From the NCBI GenBank assembly GCA_051313645.2, contig JBNRSN020000001.1:603198001-603262000 (forward strand): a stretch of DNA of 64,000 nucleotides, given 5' to 3'. Below the pieces are notes generated by a model. The model was not told the DNA's origin. It did not search any database and saw only the letters and a list, made by a program, of their open reading frames with translations. The stretch is from Centroscyllium fabricii. Taxonomy: Eukaryota. Positions 268-61,000 of this stretch are shown here, piece after piece (the first letter of the stretch is position 1; each line of letters opens with the position of its first letter). A program made the translations under genes and the position numbers.

Positions 268-1225
268 GAGAGTGGGTACAGAGGAGGTATACAAGGATGT
301 TGCGAGGACTGGAGAATTTTAGCTGTGAGGAAAGATTGAATTGTCTGGGGTTGTTTTCTTTGGAACAGAGGAGGCTGAGGAGAGACTTAACTGAGGTGTA
401 GGCAATTATGGGGGGGTCTAGATAGAGTGGATAGGAAGCACCTATTTCCCTTATCAGTTCAATTCAATTCAATTCAATTTATTGTCATTGTAAAGTGAAC
501 ATACACAAAACAACGAAATGCAAACATGCAATCTCCCAAGATATTAAAATGTCCTTTAGTCCCAGTCTGATCCATTCCATCCCACCAGGACGACCCGGCG
601 CTGCAGCCACGATGCTCCCGGTGACCGGCCACGCAGGCCACGACGGCCTCGCAGCTCCCGGCCCCCGACGGCCTCGCAGCTCCCGGCCCCCGACGGCCTC
701 GCAGCTCCCGGCCCCCGACGGCCTCGCAGCTCCCGGCGCTCCGACCACAGCGGCTTTGGTGCGTCAACACCGGTGCTCCGATTGAGGAGCACCGGTGCTC
801 TACTCCACTGACCCCGCCGTCCTCTCCAGGAACAGTGCAGGAACCAGGGACACCATCAATCTGGGAGACGCAAAGCCGCTGCGTCTATGCGCGCCTATGC
901 GCGCCGCCATCTTGTCAGAGAGGACAATAACCAGGGATATAGATTTAAAGTAGTTGGTAGAAGGATTAGAGGGGAGTTGAGGAGTACTTTATTCACCCAG
1001 AGGGTGATAGGGGTCTGGAACTCACTGCCTGAAAGAGTGATAGAGGCAGAAATCCTTGTTGCATTTAAAAAGTACTTGAATACACACTTGAATTGCTGTA
1101 ACCTACAAGGCTACATACCTAGAGCTGGAAAGTGAGATTAGGCTGAATAGCTCTTTTTCAGCCACACAGACACGATGGGCCGAATGGCCTCCTTCTGTGC
1201 TGTAAATTTCTATGATTCTCTGATT
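268..1225 (+). mobile_element. 5'-truncated CR1 LINE 3' end, split by the insertion at 458-913
   Basis: Degenerate ORF2 C-terminus (VQRRYTRML...[15 protein letters not shown]; FTQRVIGVWNSLPERV) followed by the CR1 tail gggccgaatggcctccttctgtgctgtaa...ctatgattc. Confidence 0.88.
458..913 (-). mobile_element. Short non-autonomous retroelement with AGATGGCGGCG head, GC-rich 25-bp VNTR and TGACAATAAA-(TTGAA)n tail (copy 1)
   Basis: Head and tail are homologous to the element at 57323-58021. About four 25-bp units start at 641, 666, 691 and 716. Candidate TSD tt(a/g)tcag at 451-457 and 912-918. Confidence 0.8.
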
Positions 1226-13726: not shown

Positions 13727-15971
13727 AAAGGACAAAGATGGACCGGAAATAAAGGTTCTAAATTGGGGGAAGGCCGATTTTAATATGATAAGGCAGGATC
13801 TGGCCAAATTGGACTGGGATCAGCCACTTGCAGGAAAATCCACATCAGAGCAGTGGGAGTCTTTCAGAAAGGAAATTGAGTACAATGCTAACATGTTCCC
13901 GTAAAGGTCAAGGGTGGGACCAACAAGCCCAGGGAACCCTGGATGTCAAGGGATATACAAGAATGGATTAGGAAAAAAAGGGAGGCTTCTGGCAGATACA
14001 AAGGACTGAAAACAGTGGAAGTCCTAGAGGAGTATAGAAAGAAAAATTAGGAGAGCAAAGAGAGAGCATGAAAAAACACTGGCGGGCAAAATAAAGGAAA
14101 ATCTCAAGGTGTTTTATAAGTATATTAAGAGCAAGAGGATAACCAGGGAAAGAGTAGGGTCCATTAGGGACCAAAGTGGCAATCTGTGTGTAGAGCCGGA
14201 AAATGTTGGTGAGATTTTAACTGAATATTTAGCATCTGTGTTCACTATGGAGAAGGACAATGTAGACATAGAAATCAGGCAGGGGGACTGTGATATACTT
14301 GAGCATATTAGCATCGAGAGGGAGGAGGTACTAGCGGTTTTAGCAGGCTCAAAAGTGGATAAATCTCCAGGCCCGGACGAGATGTATCCCAGGCTGCTGT
14401 GTGAGGCAAGGGAGGAGATTGCAGGGGCTCTGACACAAATTTTCAGAACCTCTCTGGCCACAGGCGATGTGCCAGAGGACTGGAGAACAGCTAACGTAGT
14501 ACCATTATTCAAGAAGGGTAGTAGGGATAAACCAGGGAATTGCAGGCCAGTGAGCCTAACATCAGAGGTAGGGAAATTATTGGAAAAAGTTCTGAGGGAC
14601 AGAATTAGTCTCCACTTGGAGAGGCAAGGATTAATCAATGATAGTCAGCATAGTTTCGTCAGTGGGAAATCATGTCTAACTAATTTGATTGAATTTTTCG
14701 AGGGCGTGACTAGGTGTGTGGATGAGGGTAGTGCAGTTGATGTAGTCTACATGGACTTCAGTAAGGCTTTTGACAAAGTCCCGCATGGGAGACTGGTCAA
14801 GAAGGTAAGAGCCCATGGGACCCAGGGCAATTTGGCACATTGGATCCAAAACTGGCTTAGTGGCAGGAGGCAGAGGGTGATGGTTGAGGTTGTTTTTGTG
14901 ACTGGAAGCCTTTGTTCACTGGTGTACCACAGGGATCGGTGCTGGGTCCTTTGCTGTTTGTAGTGTACATTCATGATTTAGATATGAATGTAGGAGGTCT
15001 GATCAGTAAGTTCGCAGATGACATGAAAATTGGTGGAATGGTAAATAGCGAGGAGGGAAGCCTCAGGCTACAGGATGCTATAGATGGGTTGGTTAGATGG
15101 ACAGAACAGTGGCAAATGGAATTTAACCCTGAAAATTGTGAGGTGATGCATTGTGGGAGGACTAACATGGCAAGGGAATACACAATGAATGGTTGGACCC
15201 TAGGAAGGACAGAGGATCAGTGGGACCTTGGTGTGCATATACATAGATCCCTGAAGGCACCAGGCCAGGTAGATAAGGTGGTTCAAAAGACATATGGGAT
15301 ACTTGCCTTCATTAGCTGAGGCAGAGAATATAAGAGCACAGAGGTTATGATGGAGCTGTACAAAACGCTAGTTAGGTCACAGCTGGAATACTGTGTGCAG
15401 TTCTGGTCGCCACACTAAAGGAAGGATGTGATTGCATTGGAGAGGGTGCAGAGGAGATTCACCAGGATGTTACCTGAGCTGGTCTGCTTCAGCTATGACG
15501 AGACTGGACAGGCTGGGGTTGTTTTCCTTGGAGCAGAGAAGGCTGAGGAGGGACCTGATTGAGGTGAACAAAATTATGAGGGGCATAGATAGGGTAGATA
15601 GAAAGGAACATTTCCCCTTCGTAAAGGGGTCAATAACCAGGGGGCATAGTTTCAAGGTAAGGGGCAGGAGGTTTAGAGGGGATTTGAGGAAAAACTTTTT
15701 CACACAGAGGGTGGTTGGAATCTGGAACTCATTGCCTGAAAGGGTGGTAGAGGCAGGAACCCTCAAGAACATTCAAAAAGCATTTAGATGAGCACGTGAA
15801 ACGCCATAGCATACAAGGCTACAGGCCAAGTGCTGGAAAATGGGATTAGTATAGACAGGGCTTGATGGCCGGTGCAGATACGATGGGCCGAAGGGCCTCT
15901 TTCTGTGCTGTATAACTCTATGACTATGACTCTTTGTATTCAGATTCAATTAGTGTATTCTATACGGTTAT

Positions 15972-18354
15972 ACACGAGGTACTCAACAAATACCAGATTG
16001 CACACCTGGACGCAGCCCTTATAATGGCTGGGGACTTTAATAGAGCGAACCTCAAAATGGTAATGCCCAACTTTTACCAACACATCACATGCCCTACCAG
16101 AGGGGATAGGACATTGGACCACGGCTACTCGCTGTTCAAAGATGGATACAAAGCTCAATCCCTCCCTCCATTTGGTAAATCAGACCATGCCGCCGTCTTC
16201 CTCATGCCGAAGTATAAACAAAGGCTTAAGCAAGAAGCTCCGGTGACGAGGGTGGTCAAACGTTGGTCCGATCAATCAGATGGTATGCTACAGGACGCAC
16301 TGAATGACATCGACTGGGACATGTTCCTGGCTTGCTCTGACGATATCAACATGTTTACAGAAGCGGTTGTGGGGTTCATTAGTAAACTGGTAGAGGACAT
16401 TGTTCCTTCCGTCACCATCAAGACCTTTCCCAATCAGAAACCGTGGGTGGATAAAACTATTCGTGATGCACTGAATGTGCGCACCGCTGCCTATAATTCA
16501 GGGCTAGTGTCTGGGAACATGGAAGAGTACAAAATAGCTGCATACGACCTACGGAGAGCAGTGAAGGAGGCAAAGAGACGGTACAGGGATAAAGTGGAAG
16601 CCCAATTCCAACAGTCTGCCACAAGACGCATGTGGCAAGGATTAAGGTCAATCACAGATCATAAAGGGAAACCCTCTACCACGACGAGCATCAACGCCTC
16701 TCTGGCAGAAGAACTAAACTCCTTTTATGCACGCTTCGAGGTCAATGAAACATCTGAAGCGAAAGCACCAGCCGGAGAAGAGTGTACGCTCACGATTTCA
16801 GAACAGGAAGTGAGGAGAACCTTTAGTAGGGTGAACACCCAGAAGGCAGCAGGACCGGACGGTATTCCCGGGCGCGTCCTCAAGGCCTGCGTTGACCAGC
16901 TGGCGCCAGTGTTCACGATGATATTCAATCTATCCCTGACCCAGTCCATTATACCTACATGTTTTAAAATGTCCACTATTGTCCCTGTGCCCAAGAAAGC
17001 ACACCCAACCTGCCTGAATGACCATCGCCCTGTAGCACTCATCTCTGTTGCCATGATGTGCTTTGAGAGGCTAATCAAAGATTATACAAGTTCCTCTCTA
17101 TCTGGCACCCTGGATCCACTGCAGTTTGCCTACCGCCCCAATAGATCCACGGGCGATGCCATCGCACACGTCATGCATACCGCCCTATCCCACCTGGACA
17201 ACAGAAAGGGGAACTATGTGAGGATGCTGTTCATTGACTATAGTTCAGCTTTCAACACCATAGTCCCCTCCAAGCTCGGCACCAAGCTCAGGGACCTGGG
17301 GCTGCACAGCTCCCTGTGTAACTGGATCCTCGACTTCCTGATGGGTAGACCTCAGGTGGTGAGGGTAGGCAGCTACACCTCATCGACCATCATCCTCAAT
17401 ACGGGGCCCCCCCCCCCCAAGGCTGTGTCCTGAGTCCCCTCCTATACTCCCTGTACACACACGACTGTGTGGCCACGCATGACTCCAACACTATTGTGAA
17501 GTTTGCTGACGATACATTTGTAGTGGGCCTGATCACCAACAACGACGAGAAGGCCTACCTGAAGGAAGTGGAGAACCTGTCACTGTGGTGCCAGGAGAAC
17601 AACCTCTTCCTGAACGTCAGTAAGACTAAGGAGCTGATAGTAGACTTTGCGAGGAAGCAGGAGAGGTACTATAACTCTCTCAAGATCGATGGGACCCCAG
17701 TAGAGAGGATGAGTAATTTCAGATACCTCGGGGTCCATCTTTCTGATGACCTGACATGGTCCCTTCATATAGACACCTTGGTGAAGAAGGCGCGGCAGCA
17801 TCTTTACCATCTCAGAAGCCTGAGGAAATTTAGAATGTCCCCCCAAATACTAAAGAACTTTTATAAATGTACTATCGAGAGTATCCTGTCGGGGAGCATC
17901 ACCGCCTGGTATGGCAACAGCACTAAACAAGACCGTAGGGCCCTGCAGAGGGTAGTACGGTCGGCAAAATGTACCACCGGGGGTGCACTCCCTAACCTGC
18001 AGGATATCTACACCAGGCGGTGCATGACTAAGGCTAAGAAAGTTATAAGGATCCTAGTCACCCGAGCAATGGCCTCTTCTCACTGCTGCGGTCAGGAAAA
18101 CGCTACCGCAGCATTAAGACAAACACAGAGAGGCTTTTACCCCCAAGCCATCCGGATCCTAAATGAAGATGCTGCCAAGGGTCGGCATACTGACGACTGA
18201 ATGCCTTTTCTTCTTATAATTGTTAATTTATTATTTGTATTTATTGTTATCCAGAGAGCACAGACATGGAGCTTGCGACTAAGCATTTCACTGCACTTTG
18301 TACATGTATAATGATGTATGTGACAAATAAAGTAAACTTGAACTTGAAACTTGA
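15972..18354 (+). mobile_element. 5'-truncated Rex1/Babar LINE (EN C-terminal part, RT, C-terminal domain)
   Basis: Motifs GDFN, GKSDH, FPNQKPW, DPLQFAYRPNRST, RMLFIDYSSAFNTI, LSPLLYSLYTHDC, KFADDT, KKARQHLYHLR are typical of Rex1/Babar. Tail tgtgacaaataaa...(cttgaa)n. Frameshift at the C12 run 17407-17418, with further small lesions near 18048 and 18134. Confidence 0.88.
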
Positions 18355-55412: not shown

Positions 55413-57322
55413 AAGGGATGGTGAATCTGAGATCGGGAGACTATACCAAGGGACGGTGAATCCGAGATTCAGGAGACTATACCAAGGGACGGTGAATCTG
55501 AGATTGGGGAGGCTACAAAGGGATGGTGAATCTGAGATTTGGAATACTATATCAAGGGATTGTGAATCTGAGATTGGAATACTATATCAAGGGATTGTGA
55601 ATCTGAGATTGGGGATATTATAGCAAGGGACGGTGAATCTGAGATTTGGAATACTATATCAAGGGACAATGAATCTGAGATTGGAATACTATATCAAGGG
55701 ATTGTGAATCGGAGATTGGGGATACTATAGCAAGGGACGGTGAATATGAGATTGGGGAGACTATACCAACTGACGGTGCATCTGAGACTCAGGAGACGAT
55801 ACCAAGGGACGGTGAATCTGAGATTGGGTAGACTACAGCCAGAGACAGTGAATCGGAGATTGGGGATACTATACCAAGGGATGGTGAATCTGATATTGGG
55901 GAGGCTATACCCAGGGACGGTGAATCGGAGATTCGGGGACCTATAACAAGGGACGGTGAATCTGGATTGGGAAGACTATTCCAAGAGATGGTGAATCCGA
56001 GTTTTGGAAGACTATACCAAGGGTCTGAGAATCAAGATTGGGGAGACCTTAGCAAGCAACGGTGAGTCTGAGATTGGGGAGAGAAACTCAAGGGACTGTG
56101 ATTCAGAGATTGGGGATACTATACCAAGGGATGGTGAATCTGAGATTGGGGATAGTATATCAAGCGATGCTGAATCTGAGATTGGAGATAGTATATCAAG
56201 CGATGGTGAATCTGAGATTGGGGATACTGTACCAAGGGATGGTGAATCAGAGATTGGGGACACCATACCAAGGGACGGTGAATCTGAGATTGGGGATAAT
56301 ATATCAAGGGATGGTGAATCGGAGATTGGGAATGCTATATCAAGGGACAGTGAATCCGAGATTCAGGAGACTATACCAAGGGACGGTGAATCTGTGATTG
56401 CGTAGACTACACCCAGGGACAGTGAATCGGAGATTGGGGATACTATACCACGGGATGGTGAATCTGATATTGGGGAGGCTATACCCAGGGACGGTGAATC
56501 GGAGATTGGGGAAACTACAACAAGGGGCGGTGAATCTGGATTGGGACGACTGTTCCAAGAGATGGTGAATCCGAGTTTTGGAAGACTATACCAAGGGTCT
56601 GATAATCGGGATTGGGGAGACCATACCAAGTAACGGTGAATCTGAGATTTTGGAGAGAAACTCAAGGGTCTGTGATTCGGAGATACTATACCAAGCGATG
56701 GTGAATCGGAGCTTGGCGATAGTATAACAAGCGATGGTGAATCTGAGATTGGGGATACTGTACCAAGGGACGGTGAATCCGTAATCCAGGAGACTATACC
56801 AAGGGACGTGAATTTGAGATGGGGGCGACTATACCAAGGGACTGTGATTCGGACATTGGGGATACTATACCAAGGGATGGTGAATCTGAGACTGGGGAGA
56901 CTATACCAAAGGACTGTGAATCTAAGATTGGGGAGACTATACCCAGGGATGGTGAAACGGAGATTAGGGATACAATACCAAGGGATGGTGAATCGGAGAT
57001 TGGGGAGACTAAACCAAGAGATTGTGAATCCAAATTTCAGGAGACTAAACGAAGGGACGGTAAATCCGAAATCCAGGAGACTATACCAAGGGACAGTGAA
57101 TCTGAGATTGGGGAGTCTATACCAAGGGATGGTCAATCGGAGATTGGGGGGACTATACCACGTGTCGGTGCATCTGAGATAGGGAATATTATACCAAGTG
57201 ACGGTGAATATGAGATTGGGGACACTATACCAAGGGTACTACACCAAGGGATGGTGAATCTGAGATTGGGAATCCCATATCAAGCAACAATGAATCTGAG
57301 ATTGGGAATACTACACCAAGGG

Positions 57323-58021
57323 CCAGATGGCGGCGTGCATAGACGCAGCGGCTTTGCGTCTCCCAAGGAAATGATGTCCGCTGGTCCCCGTACTGGTTCT
57401 GAGCGTGGCCAGGCGCCGGTAACATCGAGGCCGTCGTGGCTGGAGCCTGCGTGGCCTGAGCATCGGGGCTGGAGCGTCGGGGCCCTCGTGGCCGGGCGCT
57501 AGGAGCTTCGGGGCCTGCGTGGCCTGAGCGTCGGGTCCGTCGTGGCCGGAGCATCAGGGCCAGGAGCATCGGGGCCTGCGTGGCCTGTGCGTCGGGGCCA
57601 GGAGCATCGGGGCCAGGAGCATCGGGGCCTGCGTGGCCTGTGCGTCGGGGCCAGGAGCATCGGGGCCAGGAGCATCGGGGCCTGCGTGGCCTGAGCATCG
57701 GGGCCAGGAGCGTCGGGGCCAGGAGCATCGGGGCCAGGAACATCGGGGCCTGCATGGCCTGAGCGTCGGGGCCAAGAGCATCGGGGCCTGCGTGGCCTGA
57801 GCGTCGGGGCCAGGAGCATCGGGGCCTGCGTGTCGGGGCCGTCGGGGCCTGAGCATCGGGACCATCGTGGCCGGTGCAGGGGGGCATTATGGACCAGACT
57901 GGGACTTACAGGAGAGGACATTTTAATATCTATTGTTTCTTTGGGAGATTGCATGTTTGCATTTCATTGTATTGTGTTCACTTTACAATGACAATAAATT
58001 GAATTGAATTGAATTGAATTG
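57323..58021 (+). mobile_element. Short non-autonomous retroelement with AGATGGCGGCG head, GC-rich 15/23-bp VNTR and TGACAATAAA-(TTGAA)n tail (copy 2)
   Basis: Clean insertion in a satellite unit with TSD AAGGG (57318-57322, 58022-58026); head and tail homologous to 458-913. Confidence 0.85.
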
Positions 58022-61000
58022 AAGGGATGGTGAATCTGAGATTGGGAATACTATTACAAGGGACTGTGTATGAGATTGGGGACACTATACCAAGGGATGG
58101 TAAATCGGAGATTGGGGCGAGTACAGCAAGGGACGGTGAATCGGAGATCACGTAGACAAATCAAGGGACAGTGAATCGGAGATTGAGAATACTACACCAA
58201 TGGATGGTGAATCTGAGATTGGGAATACTATTTCAAGGGACGATGAATCTGAGATTGGGATTACTGCACCAAGAAATGGTGAATCTGAGACTGGGAATAC
58301 TATTAAAAGGGACTATGAATCTGGCATTGGAATACTATATCAAGGGATTGTGAATCGGATTGGGGATACTATACCAAGGGACGGTGAATATGAGACTGGG
58401 GAGACTACCAAGGGACAGTCAAACTGAGATTGGCAATAATATACCAAGGGACGGTGAATCTAAGATTGGGGAAACTAAACTAAGGGACGGTGAATCTGAG
58501 ATTGGTGCGAGAAACACAAGGGGTGGTGAATCTGAGATTGTGGATACTTTACCAAGGGTCGATGAATCTGAAATTTGGCAGATTATACCAAGGGACGGTG
58601 AATCGGAGATTGGGCATACTTTACCAAGGGACGGTGAATATGAGACTGGGGAGACTATACCAAGGGACGGTGAATCAGAGATTCAGGAGACTACCAAGGG
58701 ACAGTCAAACCGAGATTGGCAATAATATACCAAGGGACGGTGAATCGGAGATTGGGGAGACTACACCCAGGGACAGTGAATCGGAGATTGGGGAAACTAA
58801 ATCAAGGGACGGTGAATCTGGATTGGGGAAACTATACCAAGAGACGGTGAATCCGAGTTTTGGAAGACTATACCAAGGGTCTGAGAATCGGAGATTGGGG
58901 AGACTATACCAAGTAACGGTGAATCTGAGATTGGGGAGAGAAACTCAAGGGACTGTGATTCGGAGATTGGGGATACTATACCAAGGAGTGATGAATCTGA
59001 GATTGGGGATACTATACCAAGGGATTGTGAATCGGAGACTGGGGATACTATACGAAGTGATGGTGAATCTGAGATTGGGGAGAGAAACTCAAGGGACTGT
59101 GATTCGGAGATTGGGGATACTATACCAAGGAGTGATGAATCTGAGATTGGGGATACTATACCAAGGGATTGTGAATCGGAGACTGGGGATACTATACGAA
59201 GTGATGGTGAATCTGAGATTGGGGAGACTACCAAGGGACAGTCAAACCGAGATTGGCAATATTATACCAAGGGACGGCGAATCTGGATTGGGGAGACTAT
59301 TCCAAGAGACGGTGAATCCGAGTTTTGGAAGACTGTACCAAGGGTCTGAGAAACAGAGATTGGGGAGACTATGCCAAGTAATGGTGAATCTGAGATTGGG
59401 GAGAGAAACTCAAGGGACTGTGAATCTGATATTGAGGAGATTATACCAAGGGACGCTGAATCTGAAATTGGGGAGACTATACCCAGGGATGGTGAATCGG
59501 AGATTGGGGAGGCTAAACCAAGTGATTGTGAATCCAGAATTCAGGAAACTAAATGAAGGGATGGGTAATCCAAAATTCAGGAGACTGTACCAAGGGACGG
59601 TGGATCTGAGATTGGGGTGTCTATACCAAGGGATGGTGAATCGGAGATTGGGAATACTATATCAAGGGATGATGAATCTGAGATTGGAATACTATATCAA
59701 GGGATTGTGAATCGGAGATTGGGGATACTATACCAACGGATGGTGAATATGAGATTGGGGAGACTATACCAAAGGACGGTGAATCGGAGATTGCGTAGAC
59801 TATACCAAGGGACGGTGAATCGGATATTGCGTAGACTATACCAAGGAACGGTGAATCGGAGATTGGGAATACCATATCAAGGGACAATGAATCTGAGATT
59901 GGGAATACTGCACCAAGGGATGGTGAATCTGAGATTGGGAATACTATTAGAAGGGACGGTGAATATGAGATTGGGGACACTATACCAAGGGATGGTGAAT
60001 CAGAGATTGGGAATACTACACCAAGGGATGGTGAATCTGAGATTGGGAATACCATATCAAGCGACAATGAATCTGAGATTGGGAATACTACACCAAGGGA
60101 TGGTGAATCTGAAATTGGGAATGCTATTACAAGGGACGGTGAATATGAGATTGGGGACACTATACCAAGGGATGGTGAATCGGAGATTGGGGCGAGTACA
60201 GCAAGGGACAGTGTATCGGAGATCGCGTAGACTATATCAAGGGATGGTGAATCGGAGATTGAGAATACTACACCAAGGGACAGTGAATCTGAGATTGGGA
60301 ATACTATATCAAGGGACAATGAATCTGACATTGGAATAACATATCAAGGGATTGTGGATCGAAGATTGGGGATACTATACCAAGGGACGGTGAATTAGAA
60401 ATTCAGGAGACTATACCAAGGGACGGTGAATCTGAGATTGGGGAGACTACCAAAGGACAGTCAAACCGAGATTGGCAATAATATACCAAGGGATGGTGAA
60501 TCTGAGATTGGGGAGACTACACCCAGGGACGGTGAATCGGGGATTGGGGATACTATACCAAGGGACGGTGAATCTGGATTGGGGAAACTATACCAAGGGA
60601 TGGTGAATCCGAGTTTTGGAAGACTTTCCCAAGGGTCTGAGAATCGGATATTGGGGAGACTATACCAAGGGACGGTGAATCTGAAATTGGGGAGACTATA
60701 CCAAGGGACAGTGAATCTGAGATTGGGGAGATTATACCAAGGGACGGTGAATCTGAGATTGGGGAGACTATACCACGGGACGGTGAATCCGAGTTTTGGA
60801 AGACAATACCAAGAGTCTGACAATCGGATAATGGGGAGACTATACCAAGAAACGGTGAATCTGAGATTGAGGAGAGAAACTCTAGGGACTGAGATTCGGA
60901 GATCGGGATACTATACCACGGTACAATGAATCTGAGATTAAGGAGACTATACCAAAGGACAATAAAACCGAGATTAGGAACAATATACCAAGGGATGGTG

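Follow-up and report, generated by a model that had tools for sequence, protein, structure and literature searches.

A young retroposon family of Centroscyllium fabricii with probable Rex1-type LINE ends around a variable CpG-rich repeat core

The window (the whole stretch of 64,000 nucleotides of Centroscyllium fabricii DNA that was analysed) carries two copies of an element family that is real, young and abundant in the 7.2 Gb genome. We consider it very probable that the element is a bipartite, non-autonomous LINE derivative in which two Rex1-type ends enclose a foreign VNTR core. It encodes no LINE protein and is a retrotransposition unit in its own right, judged by its copy number, its 5' truncation and its ladders of subfamilies. 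Far more tentatively, we propose that this VNTR composite arose independently of primate SVA, that a 12 bp TISU/YY1 motif from a leaderless Rex1 LINE would serve it as both promoter and start codon, and that its source elements may have been selected for a micro-ORF of 14-15 codons with a moving stop, short translation bringing the RNA to the LINE protein or freeing it for that protein. Were this proposal correct, Rex1 would join the few LINE clades that yield two-ended parasites, and the SVA design would have arisen outside hominoids as well, scattering variable patches akin to CpG islands in their thousands. The turnover of stops would then offer a natural test of whether the RNA of a non-coding retroposon has to pass through brief translation before it can move and, with the LINE start codon apparently no more than about 4 nt from the 5' end, TISU-type initiation would become testable in a transposon.

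Copies in the window and across the genome

Copy 2 (57323-58021, forward strand) lies within a 36 bp satellite, and copy 1 (914-458, reverse strand) carries a private 10 nt duplication in its head. A 27 nt head motif and a 22 nt tail motif each occur exactly twice in the window, compared with 0 expected from shuffles. An earlier note, written from the window alone, had given the coordinates, the common head and tail and the repeat units of both copies, and all of these hold as it gave them, as do the short TSDs and the interruption of a host repeat by copy 2, which has the 36 bp satellite on both sides (Table 1). The array of copy 1 consists of 4.2 repeats of a 25 bp unit and the core of copy 2 of 17 units of 15 and 23 bp, running from 57442 to 57820. 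The head of copy 2 reads CCAG where CAAG is usual, and its predicted 3' stem-loop comprises an 8 bp stem, an internal loop and an upper stem of 2-3 bp. The satellite itself (window 33087-63746, 30 kb) contains long stop-free frames on both strands and shows longer-range duplication, with identical translations 2,888 bp apart.

Table 1. Positions of element features and flanking duplications in the window
Feature	Position	Strand	Basis
5' TSD of copy 2 (AAGGG, 5 bp), in the 36 bp satellite	57318-57322	+	sequence
Head, corresponding to a Rex1-type LINE's 5'-most ~45 nt; its ATG is set in a TISU/YY1-type motif	57323-57367	+	
Micro-ORF of 15 codons plus TGA (MAACIDAAALRLPRK), in the LINE reading frame	57327-57374	+	
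Lineage-A unique segment between head and array, without LINE match	57375-57441	+	
GC-rich VNTR core, units of 15 bp and 23 bp, periods 38 and 53	57442-57885	+	
Fixed 3' segment, present in every lineage, with no alignment to the partner LINE	57886-57942	+	
LINE-like 3' end, with predicted stem-loop and AATAAA	57943-57998	+	
(TTGAA)5 microsatellite tail, final 2 bases (AA) overlapping the TSD	57999-58023	+	
3' TSD of copy 2 (AAGGG)	58022-58026	+	
Copy 1 (lineage B), with 25 bp array (641-745), tail and (TTGAA)4	458-914	-	
TSD of copy 1 (CTGA, 4 bp)	915-918 and 454-457	-	

Genome-wide copy numbers were counted by exact sequence patterns. A 29 nt head pattern gave 2,118 matches and two disjoint tail patterns gave 12,879 and 2,403, hence at least 15,282 tails; reversed control patterns gave 0. 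The proposal of a family with constant ends and a variable core is borne out by these matches at many loci, and their number, in the thousands, disposes of the possibility that only the two window copies exist. A tail lay within 1.5 kb at 29 of 30 head loci. Conversely, the 70 tail loci inspected (the first 30 listed and 40 others listed, all on contig C1) were the element in every case: the head was recognised by pattern in 34 and damaged in 2, and the remaining 34 were 5'-truncated copies of 52-654 bp. LINE coding sequence was joined to the element tail in none of these 70. Full-length copies measure 388-1,242 bp, with a median of about 700 bp, and one with an insertion reaches 1,529 bp. Ragged 5' ends combined with intact 3' ends are a hallmark of target-primed reverse transcription. 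TSDs of at least 4 nt flank 10 of 46 copies, compared with 7% of shuffled pairs, and none was detected in 30 of the 46; 4 of the 46 had unparsed tails and are counted as the script scored them; TSD lengths range from 0 to 7 bp.

Trees of the fixed ends contain three lineages with ladders of subfamilies; a second tree was built without the hypervariable head columns (bases 40-48). Five duplicates of tail loci (L001-L005) were dropped, and copies with insertions or with truncated or misparsed heads (L021; 8 and 12 rows) were left out of trees and core counts. Terminal branches of the element have medians of 0.013-0.017. The tail microsatellites differ by subfamily, appearing as TTGAA, TTGTA, TCTTA, TCTAA or TCTGAA. 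At one locus (L235, G000:C1:152877650-152879650) the tail of a lineage-A copy is interrupted by a more divergent element of a fourth type, which likewise stops at codon 15 and differs in its 3' end, and two copies (L021, L226) share a GC-rich palindromic insertion at an identical site inside the 3' stem-loop.

Origin of the two ends

With PF09004, which we take to be a marker of Rex1-type ORFs, as search profile (150 of 32,542 and 150 of 78,250 candidates scored), we found LINEs that end in an element-like tail followed by (TTGAA)n. This LINE is 3.07 kb long. Its single ORF, of 987 aa, has its start no more than about 4 nt into the sequence; ORF1 is lacking, and a variable oligonucleotide repeat comes after the 3' UTR. 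By Pfam the ORF contains RT and PF09004, with an endonuclease match below cut-off. An ORF of 973-987 aa begins at the ATG of the same head in 17 of 20 copies, which were chosen for long open frames, and ten copies of the same length are 99.1-99.6% identical. Exact matches to a LINE-type tail pattern number 69,594, uninspected and possibly including other short elements. The LINE is presumably Rex1, a label that rests on ORF and tail features instead of a phylogeny with named reference elements; among the 120 homologues listed, none bears it. Homologues in fish are up to ~60% identical, and 25 of 32 fish-type homologues, chosen for near-full coverage, begin MA, many of them MAARxDAAA. Rex1/Babar elements are described in the available parts of two sources as having a single ORF with endonuclease and RT and no ORF1 (PMC13343379), and as bearing a short-unit repeat after the 3' UTR (PMC6274825); the available parts of two others (PMC4110674, PMC7599744) give no sequence features by which Rex1 is classified.

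In alignments of five elements with two LINE copies, the element head matches LINE positions 2-54 and the tail matches the last 45-75 nt, with scores that 0 of 100 shuffles equalled (42-53 at the 5' end, compared with shuffle maxima of 25-30), whereas the element middle aligns to the LINE at chance level. The element ends are ~80-90% like the LINE ends, and folding predicts one and the same 3' stem-loop for element and LINE, its upper stem differing by a single compensatory G-C/A-U swap; folding z-scores are weak (-0.3 to -2.0 for the tails). These alignments show both element ends to be of LINE origin, and the LINE derivation given in the earlier note stands for the ends, with a core that does not match this LINE. 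The ~110 bp tail it described is shared between copies and is LINE-alignable only in its last ~55 nt. Its alternative, that the whole element is the 5' UTR plus tail of a LINE, fails on a LINE 5' UTR of at most about 4 nt and on a core that the LINE does not match. A candidate origin of the core in the LINE's GC-rich coding stretch was suggestive by eye, proved to be at chance level against shuffles and was rejected.

Judging from the resemblance of their ends, this particular 987 aa LINE family probably mobilises the element. When the genome was searched for a parent LINE closer to the element, the single match was itself an element copy, and the search revealed no LINE in which the element head runs on into the LINE's next codon. 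Element tails of the (TTGTA)n, (TCTTA)n and (TCTAA)n types occur in 0 of 18 full-length LINE tails. A second Rex1-type family is present in the window (15970-18350, forward strand) as a 5'-truncated copy with ~50% amino-acid identity to the partner, a different 3' end and a 19 bp satellite on its flanks. Given the degree of likeness of the ends, the existence of this second family and the lack of a closer parent, the partnership is likely rather than proven.

Codons 15-30 of the LINE ORF encode a hydrophobic, signal-peptide-like segment, found also in 26 of the 32 homologues (13-residue hydropathy of at least 2.0), and the element stop sits just before the position of this segment. In the youngest intact LINE subfamily, an A-rich run of up to ~29 nt lies directly 5' of the ATG in 10 of 18 copies; the run is absent from the 3' flank and suggests slippage as transcription begins or as reverse transcription ends. 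At one further locus (L082) a reversed LINE 3' end lies inside another copy of the same LINE.

Head motif, micro-ORF and competing readings

The element head corresponds to the first ~45 nt of the LINE, that is, to a start codon set in a TISU/YY1 motif and 13 further codons. A YY1 motif does lie at the 5' end, as had been claimed, in coding sequence rather than in a UTR. The TISU consensus SAASATGGCGGC (PMC3177215) is matched exactly by 51 of 81 element heads, and the common LINE form agrees with it at 11 of 12 positions. TISU is a binding site for YY1 and allows translation to begin behind very short leaders (PMC2518114); its description comes from mammalian host genes (PMC2518114, PMC3177215), where it lies shortly after the start and directs cap-proximal translation, and the motif in the element head matches it by sequence. 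G is enriched upstream of the head: of 59 copies, 38 have it at -1 and 32 at -2, compared with a background of 23%, and an extra G is reported to mark capped full-length L1 insertions (PMC11702581). The enrichment favours a capped Pol II RNA as the putative intermediate. This reading must be tempered by the position of the G, which is outside the TSD in some copies and part of it in others, so that the G may instead stem from the choice of target or from transcripts that genuinely begin with GG. Taking motif and flank together, we regard it as reasonably likely that Pol II produces capped transcripts with their 5' end at the TISU/YY1 motif. No tRNA, A box or B box was detected in the element (A and B boxes by regular expressions in 4 copies), in agreement with the earlier reading, and Rfam returned a single match on 6 loci, below the gathering score of its family. 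A hairpin in the head was considered and rejected, with folding z values from about 0 to +1.5 for 6 of the 7 copies.

The earlier note saw no real ORF and so overlooked the 15 codons that open at the ATG of the head motif. Of 68 copies, 58 have their first in-frame stop at codon 15 or 16, 2 reach one sooner and 8 later; two of these 8 (L236, L237) were picked for lacking a stop, so this count overstates its loss. By eye, an early stop is present in 93 of 100 copies among the matches listed. Five of the 7 without it (L016, L053, L235, L236, L237) share one TGA-to-TTA change on different subfamily backgrounds, which fits a mutation hotspot, possibly one of RT error, and shows that stop-less copies are common. 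Bases 40-48 (codons 14-16) are hypervariable between nearly invariant flanks. The basal states have a stop at codon 15 (TGA or TAA), and it has moved to codon 16 as TGA in lineage A and as TAG then TAA in lineage B, two separate shifts on the tree from which these columns were omitted; lineages A and B both have double-stop intermediates (TGA.TGA and TGA.TAG). Twelve subfamily states related by 23 changes within 9 nt all keep a stop, and only in the ATG frame, an outcome with p of 0.0009-0.0035 under random placement in a simulation whose 9 nt window and state tree were chosen post hoc. Further stops follow at codon 32 or 58 in many copies, and the peptide is not conserved (MAARVHAAA in lineage C). 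On balance the pattern of stops leads us to suspect that the head ATG is translated and that source elements are under selection for termination after 14-15 codons.

In the mechanism we envisage, capped Pol II transcription would start at the head TISU/YY1 motif, ribosomes would initiate at the head ATG and terminate after 14-15 codons, this early stop would keep them out of the VNTR core, and a Rex1-type LINE protein would mobilise the RNA in trans.

Two competing readings leave the bipartite structure intact. Another Rex1-type lineage, extinct or unsampled, may have supplied both the ends and the mobilising protein, with the intact family as its sister. Codon 6 of the element encodes Asp (MAARIDAAA), as in many fish homologues, where the codon in the resident LINE reads Asn, Ile or Phe; a stretch of about 57 nt in the fixed tail is without counterpart in that LINE, further Rex1-type families are present in the genome, and the candidates scored were the two sets of 150 given above. 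We nevertheless hold such a lineage to be unlikely, given that no LINE appeared among the 70 loci with the element tail or behind the element head, that the 3' end of the second Rex1-type family is less like the element's than is that of the resident LINE, and that element and resident LINE are both young. The other reading bears on the stop, which may be a neutral leftover in an A/T-rich patch behind an unused ATG, the head being kept as DNA promoter and RNA signal. The ATG lies inside the YY1 site (PMC2518114), so promoter function alone would conserve it; moreover, 7 of the 100 copies listed do without the stop, many have later stops at codon 32 or 58 anyway, and the simulation was post hoc. 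Set against this are the retention of a stop in 12 of 12 states at the simulated chance given above, the absence of stops from the other two frames, the existence of both double-stop intermediates and the two separate shifts to codon 16, and we judge neutrality to be quite possible, somewhat short of an even chance.

Readings that would dispense with a LINE-derived head or with retrotransposition fare worse. A Pol III SINE whose small-RNA head or GC-rich promoter has gone unrecognised could draw on the 4 copies checked for a TTTT run before the tail, none of which has one, so that Pol III read-through would be allowed, and on the existence of SINEs with GC-rich heads of unknown origin (PMC5786205); the lack of A and B boxes, tRNA and any Rfam family above cut-off, the coincidence of the element 5' end with the LINE 5' end and the G enrichment just upstream make it very improbable. 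Duplication at the DNA level, or minisatellites flanked by chance LINE fragments, would accord with a core that is a minisatellite and with the many copies in which a TSD is missing. It is refuted, beyond any reservation that we would take seriously, by flanks that are unrelated from locus to locus and by sharp common ends with 5' truncation and intact 3' ends; the microsatellite tails are variable, and TSDs are more frequent than in the control.

The variable core and likeness to other composite retroposons

RIME, NARTc, Bov-A, RTE-N and Vingi derivatives likewise keep the 5' and 3' extremes of a LINE, and bipartite LINEs share with our element the lack of a small-RNA head and a presumed dependence on Pol II and on mobilisation in trans (PMC5786205). 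The available part of that source (Kojima 2018, PMC5786205) names only RTE, Ingi, Vingi and R2 as donors of bipartite ORF-less LINEs and does not mention Rex1, which as donor is thus a clade absent from the listed ones. Our element differs from bipartite LINEs in that its interior is 300-1,100 bp of foreign tandem repeat rather than a plain internal deletion, and in that its 5' piece is coding sequence rather than UTR; with a middle that matches the LINE no better than shuffles do, it is a variant, not a plain bipartite LINE. It is set apart from Rex1/Babar by its lack of coding capacity, and a TISU-type start at the extreme 5' end goes unmentioned for Rex1/Babar in the available parts of PMC13343379 and PMC6274825. 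SINE2-5_NV, paired with Rex1-24_NV, is a short element relying on a Rex1 3' end (PMC3747384); it has a tRNA head, which our element lacks, and the available text gives no LINE 5' end or VNTR for it. A search of the main texts of mainly open-access literature found no published description of an element of this kind.

SVA and LAVA carry a poly(A) tail and L1-type TSDs. Our element differs in its microsatellite tail, its TSDs of 0-7 bp and its repeat units of 14-43 bp or larger modules. Like SVA, LAVA, PVA and FVA it combines fixed ends with a GC- and CpG-rich VNTR in subfamily-specific arrays, and it resembles these four in length variation between siblings and, putatively, in mobilisation in trans by a LINE (PMC4432496). 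They occur only in hominoids, are mobilised by L1 and begin with a CT-hexamer/Alu-like part (PMC4432496), whereas the 5' part of the element is a LINE 5' end. The likeness is convergence, not kinship, and the element is not an SVA; the 'SVA-like' of the earlier note holds for the architecture only, the 5' and tail features of SVA being absent.

The same note had the element spreading small CpG islands, and all 71 full-length copies tested do qualify by CpG-island criteria; the observed/expected CpG ratio over window positions 1-33000 is 0.45. The vocabulary of core units is small, with one 9-mer present in 62 of 71 cores, and the dominant period differs by subfamily: 25-26 or 41-43 bp in lineage B and 23, 29, 36, 38 or 53 bp in lineage A, with longer, looser modules in lineage C. 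Siblings with near-identical ends vary widely in length, from 688 to 1,242 bp in the group with a 41 bp period. A private 14-mer occurs three or more times in 16 of 71 cores, 'private' applying only within the 71 sampled copies. Re-copying through RNA would not multiply a new error, and such private variants therefore point to amplification at the DNA level, though small unsampled subfamilies could produce them as well. We think it rather likely that core length and units change by DNA-level slippage, which would act both in source elements and after insertion; DNA-level amplification has been reported for SVA and LAVA (PMC4432496).
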